Origin: Camelus ferus
Taxonomy: Eukaryota
Assembly (NCBI RefSeq): GCF_009834535.1
Contig: NC_045696.1
Span: 2,172,001 to 2,236,000 of the forward strand
Direction of reading: 5' to 3'
Length of the DNA stretch: 64,000 bases
Made by a program: the position numbers and the translations under genes. Of this stretch, positions 20,688-64,000 are shown piece by piece. The notes under the pieces were generated by a model, which was given only the letters and a program-made list of their open reading frames with translations, was not told where the DNA came from and ran no database searches. How positions within the stretch are numbered: position 1 is the first letter of the stretch; every line of letters starts with the position of its first letter.

Positions 20688-21467
20688 TCTGCACAATTTT
20701 TCAAGGTAGCTTCAACGGCTCATCACCCTCTTTTCCTGAGACCCTTGGAATCCCAGGTTCCCGGGTCCTCCAGGCGGCCCTGGGGGTGGAGGTGGCTTTC
20801 CTCCTAAGGGGCTCCTAGGTTATTGACTGACCCCATCACCTGACTGGAACCGTGGAGATTCACCGTCGGCCTTTGGTCCAGACGCCAAAGTCAAATCTGG
20901 AGAGTCAGCACGCACCCCCTTGCAGTCCCGCCTGCAGCCCTCCCTCTGGGCTGAGCAAAAAGTGAAACTAGACCGTGGCCGCAGCGCGCAGGGTCGGGGG
21001 CGCGCGGGGCCCTCGGTCCCAGCGCCCCGAAGGCGGGCGAGGGGCGCGTATGTCCTCGGGGAGCAGCGGGCCTGCGAAAGTCCTTGGGGAGCGGGCGGCG
21101 ATGTCGCCCCTCGCCCAGCCCGGTCGCCCGGCGGCCCGCCCGCCCCTCCCGGGCGCCCCTGCCCCGGCCGCGCGCAGCCCGGGCCCAGCGCGCCCGGCTG
21201 CAGCGCCCCAGGCGGGCCGGCAGGGACGCGGACCAGGCCTGGGCCTGGCCGGACGGGACCCCGGGGAGGCCGGGAGGGAGCCCGGGGCCCGCGGACCCCA
21301 GCCCCCGTCCGCCCGCAGGCCTCCCGCAGGAGGAGCGCAGCCGGCCCACTGCGGCGGCGCGGGGCCCGGGTCGCGGTGGGGGTGGTGACAGGGGCAGTGG
21401 GGAGGGTCCCCGACCTCCGGCGGCGGGGAGGGGAGGGGGCCGACCTCGCGGGGGCCCCGCCGCTCAC

Positions 21468-21660
21468 CTGCAGCCGCCGCCACCTGCTCTTCGCGCGCGT
21501 GGCCCCGGCGTCGCCTCCGGGCCGCTCCGGCCGCCGCGCTCCGGCCCTGGGCGCGCCCGGCCCTGCGTCGGGCCTCAGCGAGTGCGGCGCCCGCCGCCCC
21601 CGGCCCCCATCCCGCCCCGCCCGGCCCGCCGCCCTCCGCCCTCGGCCGCGCCGCCCCGCC
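21468..21660 (-). other. AGPAT3: Non-coding first exon (5' UTR) of probable AGPAT3; coding exons lie beyond the left end of the window
   Basis: Lies in a CpG island and ends in a consensus donor CAG|GTGAGC (GT at 21467-21466). Minus-strand text ...GCCGCACTCGCTGAGGCCCGACGCAGGGCCGGG...GGAGGCGACGCCGGGG...GAGCAGGTGGCGGCGGCTGCAG matches my recollection of the human AGPAT3 mRNA 5' end (not database-verified). The TSS position is approximate. Confidence 0.75.
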
Positions 21661-21708
21661 ACTTCCTGTGCGCGGCGATCCCACAGTTCCGCCGGCGCGC
21701 GGGGTGGC

Positions 21709-21860
21709 GGGGACACGCGGGGGGACACGCGGGGGGGCGACAGGGGGACACGTGGGGGACACGCGGGGGGGCGACAGGGGGACACGGAGTCCGGCAGGGG
21801 AAACACGCTAGGGGCACACTCGGGGGGGGGGGGAGGTTGGGGGGAACACGTGGGGGAGAT
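21709..21860. repeat. G-rich minisatellite (GGGGGACACGY-like ~11-12 bp units; 34-bp higher-order duplication at 21721-21786)
   Basis: Units read directly; they decay towards higher coordinates. Confidence 0.85.
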
Positions 21861-24800
21861 ACGCCAGGGGGACTGGGAGGTACAGCGGTTCAGCGGGGGT
21901 GGGGGACACGAGGCACCAGGGGACAGGGGACGCGGTAGGAGAACAAGGGGACACCCGGGGTGGGCGGCCTGGCTGGGGTCCAGAAACGGACGCGGCTGGA
22001 GGATCCGGCGAGCTTGGAGCCAGAAGCACGTGGGGTGCGGGCTCAGCTAGGTGAGTCTAAGGAGGGATTGGGGGTGCAGGGAGGGGGTCTGGCTGGGGAC
22101 ACAGACGGGGGACTGGACGTAGGGCCAGGGGCACTGCATGGAGGCGGCGAGTCACAGGGCTGGGGAGGGCAGTGGGGACCGCCCAGAGCCCTCATCTCTT
22201 CAGAGCCCCCTCTGCGGGCACTTGGGGGTGTTCCCCGGCGTGAGATTCCCCCAGTTCATGTTACTGTCCGGGGTTACTCGGGGGTTGGGGGGTCCTGGGG
22301 AGCCACCGGTCCACGCGGGGATCAGGAACCAACCCCGTCGCCCTTTGACTTATTTATAGTTGGCACCCGGCAACATTGTATCCTACTTGACCCTGGAGGA
22401 AGCCTCCCGAATTGGGGGTATGGGGTTCCCGGAGGTTGAGGGGAGGATTGTCGCCCTGAACCGGCCTCCTAGCCCCACCCCTCCCCTGTGGTCAGTAACC
22501 ACTGCCCCTCCTGGAAGAGAGTCATCAGAGCCGCGGAACAGGGCTGCCTGCATCGCCCATCAGGCACCCGGGGAGCGGCCAGGGAGGGCTGTCCTGCCAC
22601 TGGATTGTTAAGGATGACGGAGGGCCATCTCCGCTCTCCTGCCTGCTCCCTGCCTCCGTGGGACCTGCGCCTGCTCAGGCCCTCAGGTCCAAGCTGGACC
22701 TCCTGCACTTGGATGAGTTTCATCCCAAAGCTATTTAAAATACCAGGTGCTGTCACTCTCTGCTGTGCCTTATTTTAAGCCTCCTCAAATTATTTCAGAA
22801 AACACCTAGACTAAAATAAAATAAACATACCTGCACCTGTTTTACTCACAATTCTCTTACCCTTGAAAAAGAAGACATGGTTTGCAATGTTCGTGTAAAG
22901 TCCCTATTTGTAAGATCGTGGACTTTTCACTGCCACTGCAGTCATGTAAATCCTACAGACAAATTCCCATAGCCACCTGCAGATATGGACACAGATGTTC
23001 TGACTCACAGCACGCATTTACCCTAAAAACCCTGAAACAACCAACAGATGCCCCATTAAATAAACTAGGCTATTCATTTAATGATATTTTTATTTTAAAA
23101 CATTTAAAAATTATTGTAGTAATCCTATGCATGCTATTACATAATTTCTGAGATTTTTCAAGTTAAAATAAAAAACAAAGAGAAGCTGCAGAGCCATGGG
23201 TATGCAATGAACCTCTTTCTGTATTTAAAAGCAACATCTGCACATCCACACCCAGGAAAGTCCTGGAAGGACAAACATGAGACTCTTGTTGGCTGGGCAA
23301 GGTAAGGGGACCTTCTACTGTGTGCTAAGTGTATCAATACGCACTCACTTTGTAATTACTTTTTTTAAACTGATAAAAACGCACCTCATCACTGAGCTTT
23401 CCAGTCAGCGCCAAATACTATCTTTGTCTCAACAGCATAAAGTGTCAGCAATCTAATCCAGACTTGGTTTAAATCTGTGATCTTCAGACCTCAGCTGAGC
23501 AGAAACGTGCTCTGGAAAAGCAGGTCTGAACATATAAACAGAGTAAACACAAAAAGGGAACTTGGAAGCCAGCCCAGCAGCCCTTGACTGCTTCCTGGGC
23601 CCACGTGCTAAGATGACGGGAGATGTGGTCACTGCTAAGATTTATTGAGGGCTGTCACACGAGTGTGTTCTTTCAGCTGCTTATCTAAACAGGCCGTGAG
23701 GTAGAGATGATTGGCATCCCATTCTACATTTGCAGGAAACGAGGCACAGCAAACTCCGTAACTTCCACCATCAGTGTACAGCCCACCCGCCCCGGCTGCA
23801 GGGCTGGAGCCTCTCACGCCCCAGGCAGGACGTTTCCTTGCAAGGAGAGACACTCACGTCCCAGCCTGCTGAATTAAAATGGGGAACGGACAAGCCTACC
23901 TGCAGTGCTACTTGGCACAGGGAGGGAGTGAGGGGATTTCTGCCATGAAGGAACCAAAGGCAAGTGGGGTCTCTGTACCTGCCAGGAGCGTTTGCTCAGC
24001 CCTGGGAGAGGGACTCCACTCTGCTCATTATTGGTTCTCATTCTCAGGACAAACTTGCTGGCATCCCATTTCATAGACAAGTAAACCAGAGCCTGAGAGG
24101 AGACCCCAAGATGGAAGGGCAGCCAGCTGCCCACTTCCAAGACCAGGAGGGGTCTTTCCAGCCCTGAGACACTCACCGGGAACTTGCCCGTCAAGCCCTG
24201 CTCAGGTGCGCGGAGTACAGGCGTGAATCCCGGGAGGGGCCCGTCCAGCTGGCCGGTGGCTCCTAGGGCAGTAGGACACAGACATCTGGTTGTTGCCACT
24301 GCCTGGAGGAGCTGGGAGCCAAGGCTTAGAGCCAACCTCTGACCTTGAACAAGGACATGACCCCTTGGGGTCTTAGTTTCCTTTTCCGTAAAACAAGGAG
24401 ACTCCTACTTGCACTTCCGTGATCCCCAAGTGTGTGCCGGGGAGCACAAGCCTTGGGGATACTTCAGGCATTTTTAGAAGTTTAAGGCAAAACTTCCTAT
24501 CTACCCAAAATGTAGAAATTTACCAGCACTTAAGATAATGACTTTGCTGGAAACGTATTAACTCCTGCACGTTAACACACTCTCCAGTGGGTAAGTGATG
24601 CAGGTTCCTGTTTAACACGTAGGAGGGAACCACGATAAGTGCAGAATTTCAGAAGACAGGTTATTTTAAATATATTCAATATACATAGTATTTTAAACAT
24701 AGGCTCTACAAGGGCAAAAGTCACAAAAGGGTTTTTCTTACCAGGACACGCTGAGACCCATCCTCGAGGTGCCGCTGAGAAACTGAGCTCGGCCTACAGG

Positions 24801-57715: not shown

Positions 57716-60139
57716 AAAAAACTATACAACAATCAATCAATCAAGTAATAAAGTAATAAAATTTTTATATGAACAGTGGTTCCTCTTAGAAATCGAGAAG
57801 AGATGTGAGGGGTGAGGAGTGGGCAGTTTTTTTTCAATAAACATGGGTTAATTTCATAATAAAAACTTCTTTTTAAAACACCTCATGATATTATTTGAAA
57901 TGTGAGATTCAGTTTCATGATCGCAGACAAATCAGAGCTGCAGGTGCAGACTGCTTACCTCCAGACAGCTCTGCTGGGGGCCGTGCTCCCCACACCCCCG
58001 GGAGGATCTTGGCCTAAACTACTCAGGCGTGATGGGCCCCCACTTTATCCCAGCCCGCTCCCCCTAAACAGCCATGGTAACTTGAGCTAAATACACATTT
58101 TTGGCAAAGTATGAGTTTAGGATGGTCAGTGGGTTTCGGTGAGCCCAGCTCTCCTTCCGCTCAACTTCCAGGCCACGGAGACTGGTCCCAGCTGGAAACA
58201 AAACTGGACCAGGGAGGAAGGGAGGGGGGTGCAGGTCTGAGTGAGGCGGGGTGCCAGCAGGGCTCAGACCCCTCCTCCAGCAGACACTCACCTTGCACTC
58301 CACCGTGGCCATCTGGGCAGGGCCAGGACTGGGGGACAGATCAGCCCGGCACCCATCCCCAGGGAGCTGCATTCTTATGGGGGGCAGACAAAACCCATAG
58401 TTACAGACTGTGGTTAGTGCCGTGAAAAAAGCAAGTAGGAACTGAGAAAAACAGACCAAGCAGGGGTGTCTTCTTCAACACACGAGTGAGGGAACCCCAC
58501 TGCTGCCTGTACCACATCCATTTTCCCCACGTCCCTTTTAATCCCAGTATTTATGGTGCCACCAAGAGCACAGCTCTGAAAATGTCTCTCAGCTCCCCTT
58601 GCACTGGGGTTTGCCAATGAGATATAAATGATGGGCTGAGACTTCTATAAAAGCTCCTTAAAGAGGGCTGCCTCAGCTGAGAAATTCTCCCTTTCCCCCT
58701 CCATTCTCCTTTGTGCCTGGAATATGGTTGTGACGGTTGGAGCTCCAGTGGCCATTTTGTGACATTAAGTAGCCTTCCCAACCAGTGTCTGGGACTCCAA
58801 AATTTAAATAGCAGGTAAGTTCTGGAGCCAAGCATTGGACTTTTGATTCTAAAACATATATTCTTCACCATCTCCGACTGCTTCCCTCTCAACACATGCA
58901 CACACACACACACAACCCTGAGATGAAAAACAGTGGGAGCCTTTCTGTGTTCAGCAGAGCTTCTTATGGGATAGAAGGCCCCTGTGAGTGCAGGGAAAGT
59001 TCTTGCCCACATGACTTCAACCTCAAGCAGAGGGAGCAGACAGACCAGCTGACGGCAATTTTTGTTCTTCTGAGAGTTCTAAAATCAAATTTCCAATTCT
59101 TCTCTGTGACTACAACCAGATAAAATTACATGGTGCCAGCAATTTATAAATAGAAGGAAATAAATGGGGAGAGATGAGCAGATGAAGCCATAAGCCACCA
59201 GGAGAAATCAGAGGATGGAATTGCTTTGTAATTTTTTTTTTTTTAGTTTGCCAATACCATGGTTGGAATTCTCTGTGCTCTGCATCTGCTGCATGTGGTC
59301 CCCAGTGAGCATCTGGCTCCATCCTTCTCACGTCAGCGGAATCTGGTGAGACTGCAGAGCTTCGCGCTCAGGAACCCCATCTGCACTTCCGCGTCTGCTT
59401 AGGACGCTGGGTCCCTGGACGCAAACCAGGAGACACGTGGTCGCCCCCAATGGTCTGCATTTGGTGGACGCCACATTCCTGCAGGTGAGGATGCAGGCGA
59501 GGGTCCCACAGAGAGGAGCCCCCGGGCTGAGCCCAAGGCAAGCTGGGCTGTCCACGGCCAAGCCAGCAACGGGATGCTCTTCCGCCTCCAGTACCGCTTC
59601 TGACTCGTTCTTAGCCGGGAATCAGAGGCTCACTCCTCTTGCAAACATGCTCAGAGTCCAAGTGACATCAGCGTGAAACACTAGCAAACTGAAGGGGAGA
59701 CAAGATTAAAAACAGAAGATCCAGTGCTTTGTCTCCGGAGCTGCCCGACTCCTCAGATGTGCAGGAGTCATGGCTGTGATCTTTTGATCGCGTTGCTCTG
59801 CCACACAGAAGGCGACGCTGAACTACGTCAGAAGGGGTGGCGGGCGACTGGTGAGAGCTAGAACTCTTCTTCCCTGGGCCCCCCGCCCCAGTCTCTGGTC
59901 AAGAGATGTCTGGGGGCACATCTTAAGCAACCCAGACAGGGACCCTGGTCTGTGAGTTTCTCCTTTTTTTTGTGGAAGAATGAGCACTGTTTCCCTCTTT
60001 TCTTTTTTTTTTTTTTTGGTCTACGAATTTCTGAGCAGGACAAAACCCTGCCCCGTGGAAGCCGTGGGCATGGACTCCAGGAAGGGTCTCACGTACCCTG
60101 AGGCAGTGGCATCTGTTGCGGTCCTAACTGCCTGCTGTC

Positions 60140-60485
60140 TGTCTTTATTATTATTAAACTTTTTACTCTGAGGTAATGGTAGATTTACATGCTGTTGTAA
60201 GAAATAACAGAGAGTTTCTTTATTCAGTCTCCTTGAATGGGAACATGTTGCAGAGTGCAGTGCAGTATCAGACCAGGACGCTGGCACTGACGCTGTTACG
60301 GACCATCCCGTCCCCTGGTCCCCACGTCCCCACCAGGTCCCTCCTGCTCTCCTTCTGTAGCCTCAGCTCTTCACTGCTGTCCCCACCAACCACCCATCTG
60401 CCCTCTGTACCCACAGTTGTGCCATTTTAAGGATGCTTTCTAGAAGGAAGCGTCTGTATCAACTGTTTGGAATTGGCTTTTTTGC
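60140..60485 (-). mobile_element. L1MB/MC 3' end fragment
   Basis: gtagatttacatgctgttgtaagaaataacagagag...gttgcagagtgcagtgcagtatca. Confidence 0.7.
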
Positions 60486-61149
60486 ACGCTCACATCCCCA
60501 CTCTAACACACCCGCACGCACACTCACACGCTCACAGTCGGGGTCCGAGCTCACTTTCCAGGCCCTTTCTACTCAAAGAGGAGCTCGAGGAGGAGAAGAA
60601 AGGAGGTGAACACACTCTGGAGGCGGCTGCCGTTCACCAGCTCCATCTCGCTTCCTTCGCTGCCCCAGCATGCCCTTGTTTGGCTTTTGCTTTGTTCTGT
60701 TTTTACTTCTTAGGAAATGAAACCCGTTAGCGCAGCACTGGGGCTGGGCAGGCATCTGAGGACCGGAGTCACCGGCCTCAGCCTCCTCCAGCGGGGACAG
60801 GGACAGGGACAGGGTAGGGACCGCAGGCCTCGCCAGCTGCCTGCCCGCCCGGGTCGTCCAGGCCCCACCGCAGGGTCCCCTCCTCCCGACGCTCCCACCC
60901 CACTAGGCCCCAGGGTGTGGCTGGGGTCCCCCATCCCCCAGGGGCCAAGGGAGGGGCTCAGGGGGAGCCTTGCTCATTCGGGTGAAAAATTTAAGGGGGT
61001 GCCAAAAACTCAGCAGTGAGATAAACAATATTTTATTTCAATATTTTAATAAATTAATATGTGAGTCCACAAAGCGTGGGTGGTGATGGGGGCAGAGAGT
61101 GGCTCTGGAGAGCCGAGGGGACCGCGTTCTGGGGGCCGCTCGCCAGGGA

Positions 61150-64000
61150 GGGTTTAGGACACCACAGTCTCCTTGTCCAGGATCAGGAAAAATAGCAAAG
61201 CTCCTGGGCACCTGGACATAAAAGCAGCAAACGAGACACGATGGAGCAGCAGAGGAGCGCGGTCCAAATGAAGGAGGCAGGTAAAAGCCCAGGGCTGAGC
61301 GCGGCGGAGACCGGGGCCTCCCTGCAAGGAGCGCCAGGCCGTGACCCGCGAGGCCGGGCAGAGGCCTCGGGAGAGCGGCGCGCGCGCAGAGCCGGAGTCA
61401 GACGTTTTCAGCAAAGAGCTAGAAAACACGAAGAACAACAACAAAGAGCCGAGGAAAACCGCGAGCGAGATGAAAAGCAGGCCGGGAGGAGAAGCAGGGC
61501 GCTGGGCGGCGCGGAGGCTCTGCGCCTGGACGGAAGGCGAAGCGAAGAGCGATGAAAGGAACGAGGCGGGCTTCAGGCCCGGCGGGGCCTCGGCGGGCGC
61601 GCCCCGGCACGCGCGGTGCAGGCGCCCCCGGCAGGGCAGGCGGAGGGCCGGGCGGGGAGCGCGCTCTCAGGCTGGCCGCTGAAAACCGGCCTCCCCGGCG
61701 GCGCCGGCCGGTCGCCGCAGCCCGCGAGGCGCAGAGCCCGACGCAGGAGCAGCCCAGGAGAGCAGCGCGCGAGGCCCTGCGAGTAAGCCGGCGGAGTCCG
61801 GGACACGGGAGGGCGTCGCGTTCGGCGCGGCAGCAGCGGAAGCACGCCGGCCGCGCGCCGCCTTCTCAGCGGAAGCTCTGCGGCCGGCGCGGTTAAGCTG
61901 CTGAAAGGAAAGCCCTGCGGCCGAGCGTGCTTCGCCCAGCGAGGCTCTCCCTCCGAGCTGACCCCGAAGTCAAAATTCCGCAGACAAGCGGAAGCTAAAA
62001 GAGCTCAGCACCCCGAGCCAGCTGTACGAGAAATGCTAAAGGAAGAATAAATAAAATAAACGTTAAAGGAACTTCTCCGAGCGAGAAAGAAAAGGCCACA
62101 ACTAGAAACGTGAACATCATGAGAGGAGAAAGCTCACCGTGAAGGCGAACGCACAGCCAAGGCAGCGAAGGAACCACGCCCAAAGCGAGTGGGACAATTA
62201 AAGGACAAAGGAGGAAGGCCATCAGCCGCAGGCTGGGCAGCACGGGGCGCGCGACGATCAGACGTAAAACCGGACCCCAAACACAGCGGACGCGGCGGGA
62301 GGCGAGTGAAAGGCAGGGTCGTCCAAATGCATTTGAAATTAAGAGACAAGCGACTTAAAATTATCACGTATACACACATGCATACGTGCGTATACAGACA
62401 GACACACATCACAGCAACCACAAACCAAAAATCCACGGTTGGTACACACACAAAAGGGAAAGAAATCCAAACGTAACACTAGACACAGTCATCAAAGCAC
62501 AAGGGAAGAGGACGGAAGAAGACAGGACTGAAAAAGAAGGACCAAAAACACCTGAAAACAACGAACAGAGTGGCCGTAAGTTCGCACCTGCCAACGACGC
62601 TTCAAGTGCACATGGGCGAAATGCCCCGCTCACAGCGGCTGGATGGTCCCAGAAACAAGCCCGTCTGTACGCTGCCTCTGTGTCCACAGTGGGATCCTCC
62701 TCAGCCATGAAAAGAATGGGGTTTCGCCAGTTGATACCACACGGAGGACCTGGAGGGTGTCACGCTAAGGGAAGTAAGTCAGACACAGAGAGACAAAGGC
62801 TGCATGACTTCCCTTACACGTGGAATTAAAACGCAAAACAGGCGAGCGGGGGTGAGGGCCCCTGGCTGGGCTGATACACTGTAACGGACCCCAGCCGCTT
62901 GCGACCTTTAGGAAGAACAAACGTGCTTTGCTGGCAGGCGTCCGTGCGTCGCACTCCTGTCTCCTTGCTGTGAAAAGCAGACACGATGCCTTGCTTGCAC
63001 AGCTGAGGTTCCAGCTTGGGGCTGCTTCCGTAATGGACGCGCCATTGTGTGTCCCTTGTTACAAACGCAGGACGTGGCTTGTTTTAAGCTTAGGTCCACA
63101 GCCCAGGGTTTACTCTGCTCGTTGCAAAGCGACAGCCCGTGCCCTCAGCCTGAAACGCCGGGCGTGCTTTCTGCTGTTTAGATGGCCTACCCCCCAGGAC
63201 AGGAGCTGGCGGGCTGGTGGTCTGTTTTGTAGTCAGCTTCTTATATCTGAAGAATGTACCTTGTTCCTCTGCCCCCGTGACTGCCCTGAGGGCGAATTAA
63301 GCCTTTGCACTCGTGGAATTTACGATCTCTACCCGCCCCTGCTTTTCCGTAAGCTCCTGTGTTCCATGACACAACTGTTTGTGGTCTTTTCTTTGCGCAC
63401 AATAAATATGAGAGTGTTTGAGAGGCTTGGGGGGTTGGCCTCCAACTCCCTCTCGCTCTCCTGACTTTCCACAGAGTCTCGAGTCATTCATTCCGTCACG
63501 GTGGGACTTCTGCCAGACGGAACCCACAAACAACCCGCAGAAAACAAACCCGCAGAGAACAAACAGGTGGTTGCCAGAGGGGAAGGAGGGAGGAGGAGAG
63601 AACTAGGTGAGGGAGATTAAGAGGGACAAACTTCCAGTTGCAAAATAAATGAGTTGTGAGGATGAAATGTACAGCCTGGGGAATACAGTCAATTACTGTG
63701 CGACATCTTTGCGTGGTGACACCTCATAACTAGACTTATCCTGGTGAGTGTTTTGAAATGTAGAGAAATATGGAACGACTGTGTTGTGTAACAGGAATTA
63801 ACACAGTGTTGCAGGTCAATTATACTTCAAAAAGAAATTCATAGAAAAAGAGACCAGATTTGTGGTTACCAGAGCAGGGGTGGGCAGAGGGGGAATTAGA
63901 TGAAGGTGGCCAAAAGGTACAAACGTCCAGATATAAGGCAGGGAAGTGCGGGGGGGAATGTCCCACGTGAGAAGTGTAATTAACACCACTGCGTGTTACA
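61150..64000 (+). mobile_element. L1 relic: end of 5' UTR, ORF1 (61241-~62050), spacer, ORF2 start, then 3' end; interrupted by an LTR
   Basis: MEQQRSAVQMKEAGKSP resembles the L1 ORF1 start MRRQRNMFQMKEQDKTP. DVFSKELENTKNNNKE..SEMK resembles the coiled coil. cagacaagcggaagctaaaagagctcagcacc...aaatgctaaagga resembles the ORF1 C-terminus. L1 3' UTR text from ~62680 and again at 63530-64000. Confidence 0.85.
62880..63528 (+). mobile_element. Solo ERV LTR inserted in the L1 3' UTR
   Basis: Starts TGTAAC and ends CA, with AATAAA at 63401-63406. L1 3' UTR resumes immediately after. No clean TSD seen. Confidence 0.7.

Follow-up and report, generated by a model that had tools for sequence, protein, structure and literature searches.

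The Fxy gene of Mus musculus straddles the pseudoautosomal boundary and shows a massive, sharply bounded rise in GC content under very high recombination. CpG islands of a "biased gene conversion" kind were reportedly recognized by Cohen, Kenigsberg and Tanay in 2011. Excerpts of a review describe primate "BGC islands" as highly methylated and subject to rapid deamination (PMC8286816), and, according to excerpts of another report, tracts of GC-biased gene conversion (gBGC) called by phastBias coincide with a considerable part of the orphan CpG islands (PMC11170920). At PRDM9-independent "default" hotspots, stable recombination at hypomethylated, CpG-rich sites is described as driving extreme local GC content (PMC11161765; in dog, PMC4350167 and PMC7980453). 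Here we describe a locus of Camelus ferus (contig C1:2172001-2236000, a stretch of 64,000 nt that we call the window and whose numbering is used throughout), in which the first open reading frame (ORF1) of an L1 retroelement has been converted in place, base by base, by a process biased from A/T (weak, W) to G/C (strong, S). Searches were made against the 2.09-Gb assembly.

The window begins 2.17 Mb into the 122.45-Mb contig, about 2.2 Mb from its end, and contains 54% GC with an observed-to-expected (o/e) CpG ratio of 0.48. The ORF1 remnant at 61241-62050 has 104 CpG (o/e 1.07) and 181 A versus 64 T. Its central part is richer still in G and C (78.3% GC and o/e 1.12 at 61500-61900), and 102 of the 120 bases at 61561-61680 (85%) are G or C, with 20 CpG (o/e 0.94), a composition that an earlier note on this DNA had described correctly. 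The plus strand is G-rich at 61100-61600 (GC skew +0.15 to +0.27). The remnant lies within a block, 61111-62370, that is a CpG island by sequence criteria (at least 200 bp, GC of at least 50-55%, o/e of at least 0.6-0.65). Among the 20 CpG-island-like blocks of at least 300 bp in the window, this was the only one with an o/e above 0.81. Further, when 500-bp bins were scanned from 58001 to window-equivalent 84000, o/e values of 0.84 or more (0.84-1.10) were confined to 61001-62500. A tandem-repeat scan of the core yielded an 11-bp unit in 2.1 copies but no minisatellite, and no Rfam family was found within 58000-64000. The GC block is not an assembly artefact, because a DNA contig assembled independently from a second organism carries the same converted state. 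This contig spans 60600-63266 and differs from the assembly at 4 of 2667 bases and by one 1-bp indel. The core is free of base differences, and their total is too small to judge ongoing bias.

Any GC-rich sequence that is forced onto AT-rich copies mimics A/T-to-G/C change, and we therefore tested homology of the core apart from the substitution spectrum. We fetched 19 L1 copies from the genome for a permissive local BLAST, and the 13 copies with a near-complete ORF1 were aligned to the window. Local BLAST against the 19 copies yielded collinear anchors at 61244-61292, 61360-61476 and 61893-62044 and then from 62051 onward, and some L1 matches to 62051-62680 in the genome search extended back to 61934. 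An ATG is present at 61241-61243, and the motif gctgaaaac (61679-61687) lies within alignment columns in which at least 7 of the 13 copies share the base of the window. The core is thus flanked by ORF1 anchors on either side, in agreement with the collinearity claimed in the earlier note. The spacing between the anchors that enclose the core is 411 bp here versus 457-496 bp in the copies.

We then aligned 61480-61890 globally to the 13 copies, with all mismatches scored alike, and compared the result with 200 dinucleotide-preserving shuffles. The core scored 8.5 versus -30.2 +/- 3.5 for the shuffles (maximum -20.7), and none of the 200 reached the score of the core (z = 11.1). The core had 194 identical positions and 99 transversions, compared with 169 and 141 in the shuffles. 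Its purine/pyrimidine concordance was 0.756 versus 0.653 (maximum 0.680), and the reversed core behaved like a shuffle. Purine/pyrimidine identity exceeded the compositional expectation in all 16 of the 60-bp blocks of ORF1 (p from 1.9e-10 to 0.016), including the weakest blocks at 61540-61719 (0.69-0.74 versus 0.50-0.58 expected). No other match to the GC core was found in the 2.09-Gb genome, and the homologous columns are AT-rich in the 13 copies. We concluded that the core is neither a foreign insert nor a GC-rich trait of the family, because the homology is continuous, no other match exists in the genome and the copies are AT-rich. The earlier note had assigned the core to L1 ORF1 and taken the family to be A-rich there; both points held.

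To polarize the changes, a base was taken as the ancestral proxy wherever 70% or more of the aligned copies carried it; rWS denotes the fraction of ancestral A/T that is now G/C. Over ORF1 (61175-62110, 735 callable sites), there were 269 W>S, 11 S>W, 10 W>W and 33 S>S changes. When the 13 copies were treated by the same procedure, each showed 23-62 W>S and 18-65 S>W changes (pooled 544:553; Fisher p = 8e-56 versus the window), so that the spectrum of the window, as the earlier note had expected, is far from symmetric. Of the ancestral sites in the core (61480-61900), 159 of the 231 with A/T have turned to G/C, and 6 of the 121 with G/C have turned to A/T. The segment immediately upstream of ORF1 (61175-61240) has 11 W>S and no S>W changes. 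These copies are ordinary decayed L1 elements of the same genome that share the architecture of the element (end of the 5' untranslated region (UTR), ORF1, spacer, ORF2 start and 3' end) and are of comparable age, with identities to the majority state of 0.79-0.92 over ORF1 in the 13 copies and 0.84-0.94 in the 3' end of the window element. In contrast to the window element, they have remained AT-rich.

The changes in the core occurred on both strands at similar rates: 91 of 171 A became G (53%) and 28 of 60 T became C (47%), while 29 of 171 A became C (17%) and 11 of 60 T became G (18%). One-strand A>G editing of RNA by ADAR was rejected, because both strands are affected alike and transversions occur as well. 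The CpGs of the ORF1 block are new; at most 15 could have been kept here from the ancestor and lost by decay in the copies. The ancestral dinucleotides under the CpGs of the window are CA (20), TA (15), AG (8), AA (7), TG (7), GA (7) and others.

The bias is strongest in ORF1 and extends beyond it (Table 1). The ratio of W>S to S>W changes was 98:10 at 62051-62680, 24:1 at 62681-62860, 56:9 in a long terminal repeat (LTR)-like insert and 74:10 in the L1 3' end. Three other L1 fragments in the window showed 43:17, 10:2 and 15:6, with rWS of 0.08-0.19. ORF1 is therefore a sharp local peak within a subtelomeric, GC-driven domain, and the bias reaches beyond any single hotspot, as is expected at such a distance (2.2 Mb) from the contig end. 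The hotspot proposed in the earlier note thus stands as a peak (rWS 0.68-0.75 at 61541-61840) and gives way, as an isolated event, to a regional bias. The ordinary composition that the note had ascribed to the 3' end of the same element was confirmed (45% GC at 63521-64000). Beyond a trough at 63521-63850, rWS climbs again at 63961-64180, which suggests a second conversion focus just beyond the window. Further, raised rWS of 0.12-0.18 with lowered strong-to-weak rates of 0.03-0.08 was observed in three other repeat copies at C17:29911832-29915208, C5:96864210-96867847 and C1:3422242-3425677 (L019, L036 and L022, respectively). Thus, milder forms of the same W>S process occur elsewhere in the genome.

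To separate fixation bias from mutation bias, each segment was compared with its relatives in a leave-one-out manner, with rSW as the non-CpG strong-to-weak rate. In every segment compared, rWS was higher and rSW lower than in the copies (Table 1). Per site, the W>S rate was 14 times that of typical copies in the core and 3.4-4.5 times in the flanks. In the flanks, the S>W deficit does not stem from reversion, because reversion there is too rare, and the pattern is the one that fixation bias predicts. In a rough model, the flanks correspond to a time-averaged B of about 2 and the core to a B of about 3.9 plus about 3.6-fold extra substitution input. The process that fits best is gBGC, as the earlier note had proposed, because S>W changes are reduced alongside the gain of W>S changes (269:11 in ORF1).

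We consider it likely that gBGC at a long-lived meiotic recombination focus, together with a raised local mutation input, made the ORF1 island. According to this explanation, an old L1 would have inserted in plus orientation and later lost most of ORF2 and gained the LTR-like insertion, and the surrounding GC-rich domain would preferentially fix A/T-to-G/C changes. A focus of about 1 kb on ORF1 (peak at 61540-61840) would have undergone far stronger and longer W>S fixation than the domain. Some 70-75% of the ancestral A/T at the focus has turned into G/C in place, with loss of the coding signal and the appearance of about 100 new CpGs. The mechanism would be gBGC, with mutation input raised at the same place. 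The block, if hypomethylated, would then be of the PRDM9-independent "default" hotspot type, and the process may feed itself. The data show the L1 homology, the origin in situ, the spectrum of substitutions and its local peak on a regional background; recombination as the cause, the hypomethylation and any regulatory activity we infer.

Several observations weigh against this explanation. First, changes between C and G, to which gBGC is neutral, are in excess in the core (24/121 versus 65/3486 in the copies, a factor of 10.6), although noisy alignment of the blocks that have diverged most could make this count too high. In the well-aligned tail at 61841-62050, the same class amounts to 5/62, about fourfold above the copies (p = 0.007). 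Bias therefore does not make up the whole of the core signal, part of which is alignment noise or a higher input of mutations. Meiotic breaks are associated with C>G change, and the excess may be a trace of mutagenic repair of breaks at the conversion focus. Second, reversion in the core could mimic the S>W deficit. Third, rWS and rSW were negatively correlated among the other copies, but significance was not reached (Spearman -0.31 to -0.52, p 0.07-0.26). Fourth, the majority state of the 13 copies may stem from sister subfamilies, and the proposed fixation bias is deduced from fixed differences alone. Fifth, an AT-rich patch of about 60 bp at 61000-61060, which includes TATTTTAA in 3.4 copies, persists between the island and the GC-rich block at 60700-61000; this is odd for a kb-scale tract, although the patch may be younger or renewed by slippage. 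Finally, excerpts of the review cited above describe primate BGC islands as highly methylated with fast CpG decay, whereas the o/e of 1.07-1.14 observed here resembles that of unmethylated islands (PMC8286816).

The CpG content of the block bears on its methylation. DNA around the block matches the shoulders of the island in GC content, yet its CpG o/e is 0.2-0.76. Because an o/e of about 1.1 is confined to the block, 61111-62370 is probably unmethylated in the germline. Absence of methylation is the simplest reading, because conversion in methylated DNA should deplete CpG, as is the case at 60700-61000 (67-71% GC, o/e 0.41). This flank contains a GGGACA repeat in 3.5 copies at 60794-60814. 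A bolder version of the explanation, which we regard as rather unlikely, sees the block as a recombination focus that arose from a retroelement, is still active and sustains itself, and that now serves as an orphan regulatory element between genes with Nop52 and Acyltransf_C domains. Regional gBGC would have raised the GC content of the A-rich sense strand of the L1, yielding a CpG-dense sequence with a G-rich plus strand. Such a sequence might escape germline methylation, perhaps through R-loops when transcribed. Hypomethylation would draw PRDM9-independent double-strand breaks, which would bring both mutations (the C-G excess) and more conversion, thereby locking the island.

Mutation bias without fixation bias could in principle produce a similar island: at a hypomethylated or break-prone site, error-prone repair would create G/C and CpG, through either aberrant base-excision repair by TDG/MBD4 (TpG/CpA to CpG) or mutagenic repair of double-strand breaks. 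Substitution input is indeed raised, as the C-G excess in the core and its tail indicates, and excerpts of a published report describe the TDG route from TpG/CpA to CpG in CpG islands (PMC4041421). However, repair confined to TpG/CpA-to-CpG change cannot be the main source, because the CpGs overlie many ancestral dinucleotides. Only 27 of the 75 CpGs for which both ancestral bases were called lie over CA or TG, and more than half of the W>S changes (148 of 269) are not part of a CpG; CpG gain by TDG only was thus rejected. Further, non-CpG S>W change is about halved in the LTR-like insert and the L1 3' end, where reversion is minor; more W>S mutation alone does not predict this. We therefore regard mutation bias as an unlikely sole cause.

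Next, the island might not mark a distinct hotspot but be an upper extreme, reached by chance, of the subtelomeric gBGC that works across the isochore and here met an old element. Every nearby piece tested shows the W>S excess, the next 20 kb contains 52-71% GC in 500-bp bins, and rWS rises a second time from 63961 (0.32-0.35). In contrast, rWS varies between 0.03 and 0.75 inside a single element of uniform age and forms a smooth peak of about 300 bp with shoulders of 0.4-0.55. The per-site W>S rate differs severalfold between core and flanks as given above, and a CpG o/e of about 1.1 is found only in the block. A purely regional origin is thus quite unlikely, and gBGC at a local focus within a biased domain remains our preferred explanation.

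Selection would account for the island if the L1 piece had been exapted as a regulatory element and gains of G/C or CpG had been favoured for its function. The earlier note had suggested that the island could act as a promoter or enhancer. The block lies between the two genes mentioned, and excerpts of PMC11170920 link orphan CpG islands with enhancer activity. In addition, 61277-63413 is covered by contigs from three RNA libraries, each of a different study, and two of the libraries also cover parts of 60600-60933; 60988-61181 is covered by no contig of these three libraries. However, the depth is 3-8, DNA carry-over would look alike, and contigs can show neither starts nor strand. The neighbouring junk, that is, the LTR-like insert and the L1 3' end, carries the same W>S bias, and excerpts of the review report little evidence that selection acts on CpG density, whatever the regime of the CpG island (PMC8286816). 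Selection as the source of the island is very unlikely.

Finally, it is extremely unlikely that the block was never a converted L1 but an unrelated GC-rich insert, an originally GC-rich ORF1 subfamily or an element hyper-edited by ADAR before insertion: although excerpts of PMC7980453 note GC-rich segments in some L1 consensuses, such as canine L1_Cf, the homology is unbroken through the core (z = 11.1, 16 of 16 blocks), no second match exists in the genome, the 13 copies are AT-rich there and T>C matches A>G.

The features of the element and the course of rWS along it are listed in Table 1. ORF1, spacer, ORF2 start and 3' end have the same (plus) orientation, and most of ORF2 is gone through an internal deletion at about 62680. 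Stops interrupt all three frames of ORF1, and the open frames 61196-61552, 61299-61679 and 61474-61893 had no Pfam match at E <= 0.01. The membership of the ORF1 remnant in L1 therefore rests on DNA homology, because the coding signal has been erased. Among the 150 longest of the 874 stop-to-stop frames of at least 45 aa in the window, Pfam identified no credible family, only two sub-threshold chance matches. Upstream of 61172, no homology to an L1 5' UTR was detected by BLAST, and a profile search of 59001-61400 gave a best E of 1.1; this profile is weak, since the 5' UTRs of its 7 copies are only 65-88% alike, and in patches. Either a 5' truncation of the L1 near 61172 or decay of its UTR beyond recognition may explain this.

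The LTR-like repeat looks like a solo LTR by its TG...CA ends and AATAAA, and 39 other genomic copies have 75-83% identity to it (among 40 candidates scored). It was inserted later than the L1 and offers a younger probe of the local bias. The copy at C1:3423742 (L022), whose 3' end is 91% identical, was considered as a duplicate of the locus and rejected; its flanks differ, and it is a separate L1 copy.

Table 1. Features of the converted L1 and W>S change along it. Values for the genomic copies are in parentheses; rSW excludes CpG.
Feature	Position	Strand	Description	rWS (copies)	rSW (copies)
CpG-island-like block	61111-62370 (C1:2233111-2234370)	.	1260 bp, GC 64%, 137 CpG, o/e 1.07		
L1 5' UTR, last part	61172-61240	+	Aligns to the pre-ORF1 segment of other copies; most 5' L1 homology detected		
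L1 ORF1 remnant, frame destroyed	61241-62050	+	Collinear with ORF1 of 13 copies; 69.8% GC		
GC core of ORF1 (conversion peak)	61480-61900	+	79% GC; 85% at 61561-61680	0.688 (0.078)	0.050 (0.158)
L1 inter-ORF spacer and ORF2 5' end, moderately converted	62051-62680	+	63-85% identity to many genomic L1 copies	0.291 (0.073)	0.072 (0.114)
L1 ORF2 3'-part fragment	62681-62860	+	In copy L022, homologous stretch about 36 bp before the 3'-end segment	0.22-0.29	
LTR-like repeat inserted into L1	62861-63520	+	About 650 bp; TG...CA ends, AATAAA; missing from the homologous place in L022	0.170 (0.045); 0.20 falling to 0.09 with distance from core	0.028 (0.056)
L1 3' end	63521-64000, continuing to about window-equivalent 64180	+	45% GC; 39 genomic copies at 76-91% identity	0.197 (0.062)	0.051 (0.116)
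rWS segment	61175-61540			0.39-0.54	
rWS segment	61541-61840			0.68-0.75	
rWS segment	61841-61940			0.55	
rWS segment	61941-62050			0.31	
rWS segment	62051-62600			0.23-0.45	
rWS segment	63521-63850			0.03-0.12	
rWS segment	63961-64180		Extends just past window end	0.32-0.35	

The island is located between a Nop52-domain gene, with exons at C1:2254618-2257620 (-), and an acyltransferase gene, with an Acyltransf_C exon at C1:2122646-2122729 (-), and is antisense to both. A further set of Nop52 exons is present at 2.342-2.346 Mb. These genes would be RRP1 and AGPAT3 if the human order RRP1-AGPAT3 applies. The largest CpG island of the window (20811-22410; 1.6 kb, 75% GC, o/e 0.78) is a likely promoter of the minus-strand acyltransferase gene, and the ORF1 island lies about 39 kb upstream of it. 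The earlier note had placed the ORF1 island about 40 kb upstream of AGPAT3; the positions of the exon and the CpG island agree with this distance, while the gene name comes from presumed synteny only. Relative to the assembly, one base is missing at 61756-61757 from contigs of three runs, two of them RNA libraries and the third the DNA of the second organism; a run-length polymorphism or a minor error in the assembly may account for it.

Since the L1 family reveals what the starting sequence was, the locus provides a base-by-base record of biased conversion on neutral DNA, and it shows how far such conversion can go: about 70% of A/T was replaced, about 85% GC was reached, CpG stands at random expectation and the coding signal is undetectable. 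A CpG island that satisfies every sequence criterion can thus arise from junk without selection. This calls for caution in promoter annotation based on CpG islands and in tests of accelerated evolution, here and in similar genomes. If the accompanying rise of C-G changes is real, mutagenic break repair and conversion bias would be linked at one focus.

Among known systems, Fxy resembles this locus in that an AT-richer ancestry was followed by a massive, sharply bounded increase in GC content. In Fxy, however, the cause is known (a move into the pseudoautosomal region) and the gene is functional, whereas the substrate here is a dead L1. With gBGC tracts and BGC islands the locus shares a kb-scale cluster of W>S changes by which non-coding DNA close to a chromosome end has gained in GC and CpG, and the property of passing as a CpG island without being an ancestral promoter. 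Unlike these, the substrate here is a datable L1 ORF1, in which every change can be polarized. Default hotspots offer a route by which an island could sustain its own conversion, a route that is here proposed from sequence alone; the present island differs from them in lying away from any known promoter and in having been born from a retroelement. The underlying idea is already in print, as excerpts of the reports on gBGC tracts, BGC-type islands and gBGC-linked orphan islands indicate (PMC8286816, PMC11170920, PMC11161765). The locus is therefore not a new kind of element but an unusually clean and fully polarizable example of a known process.

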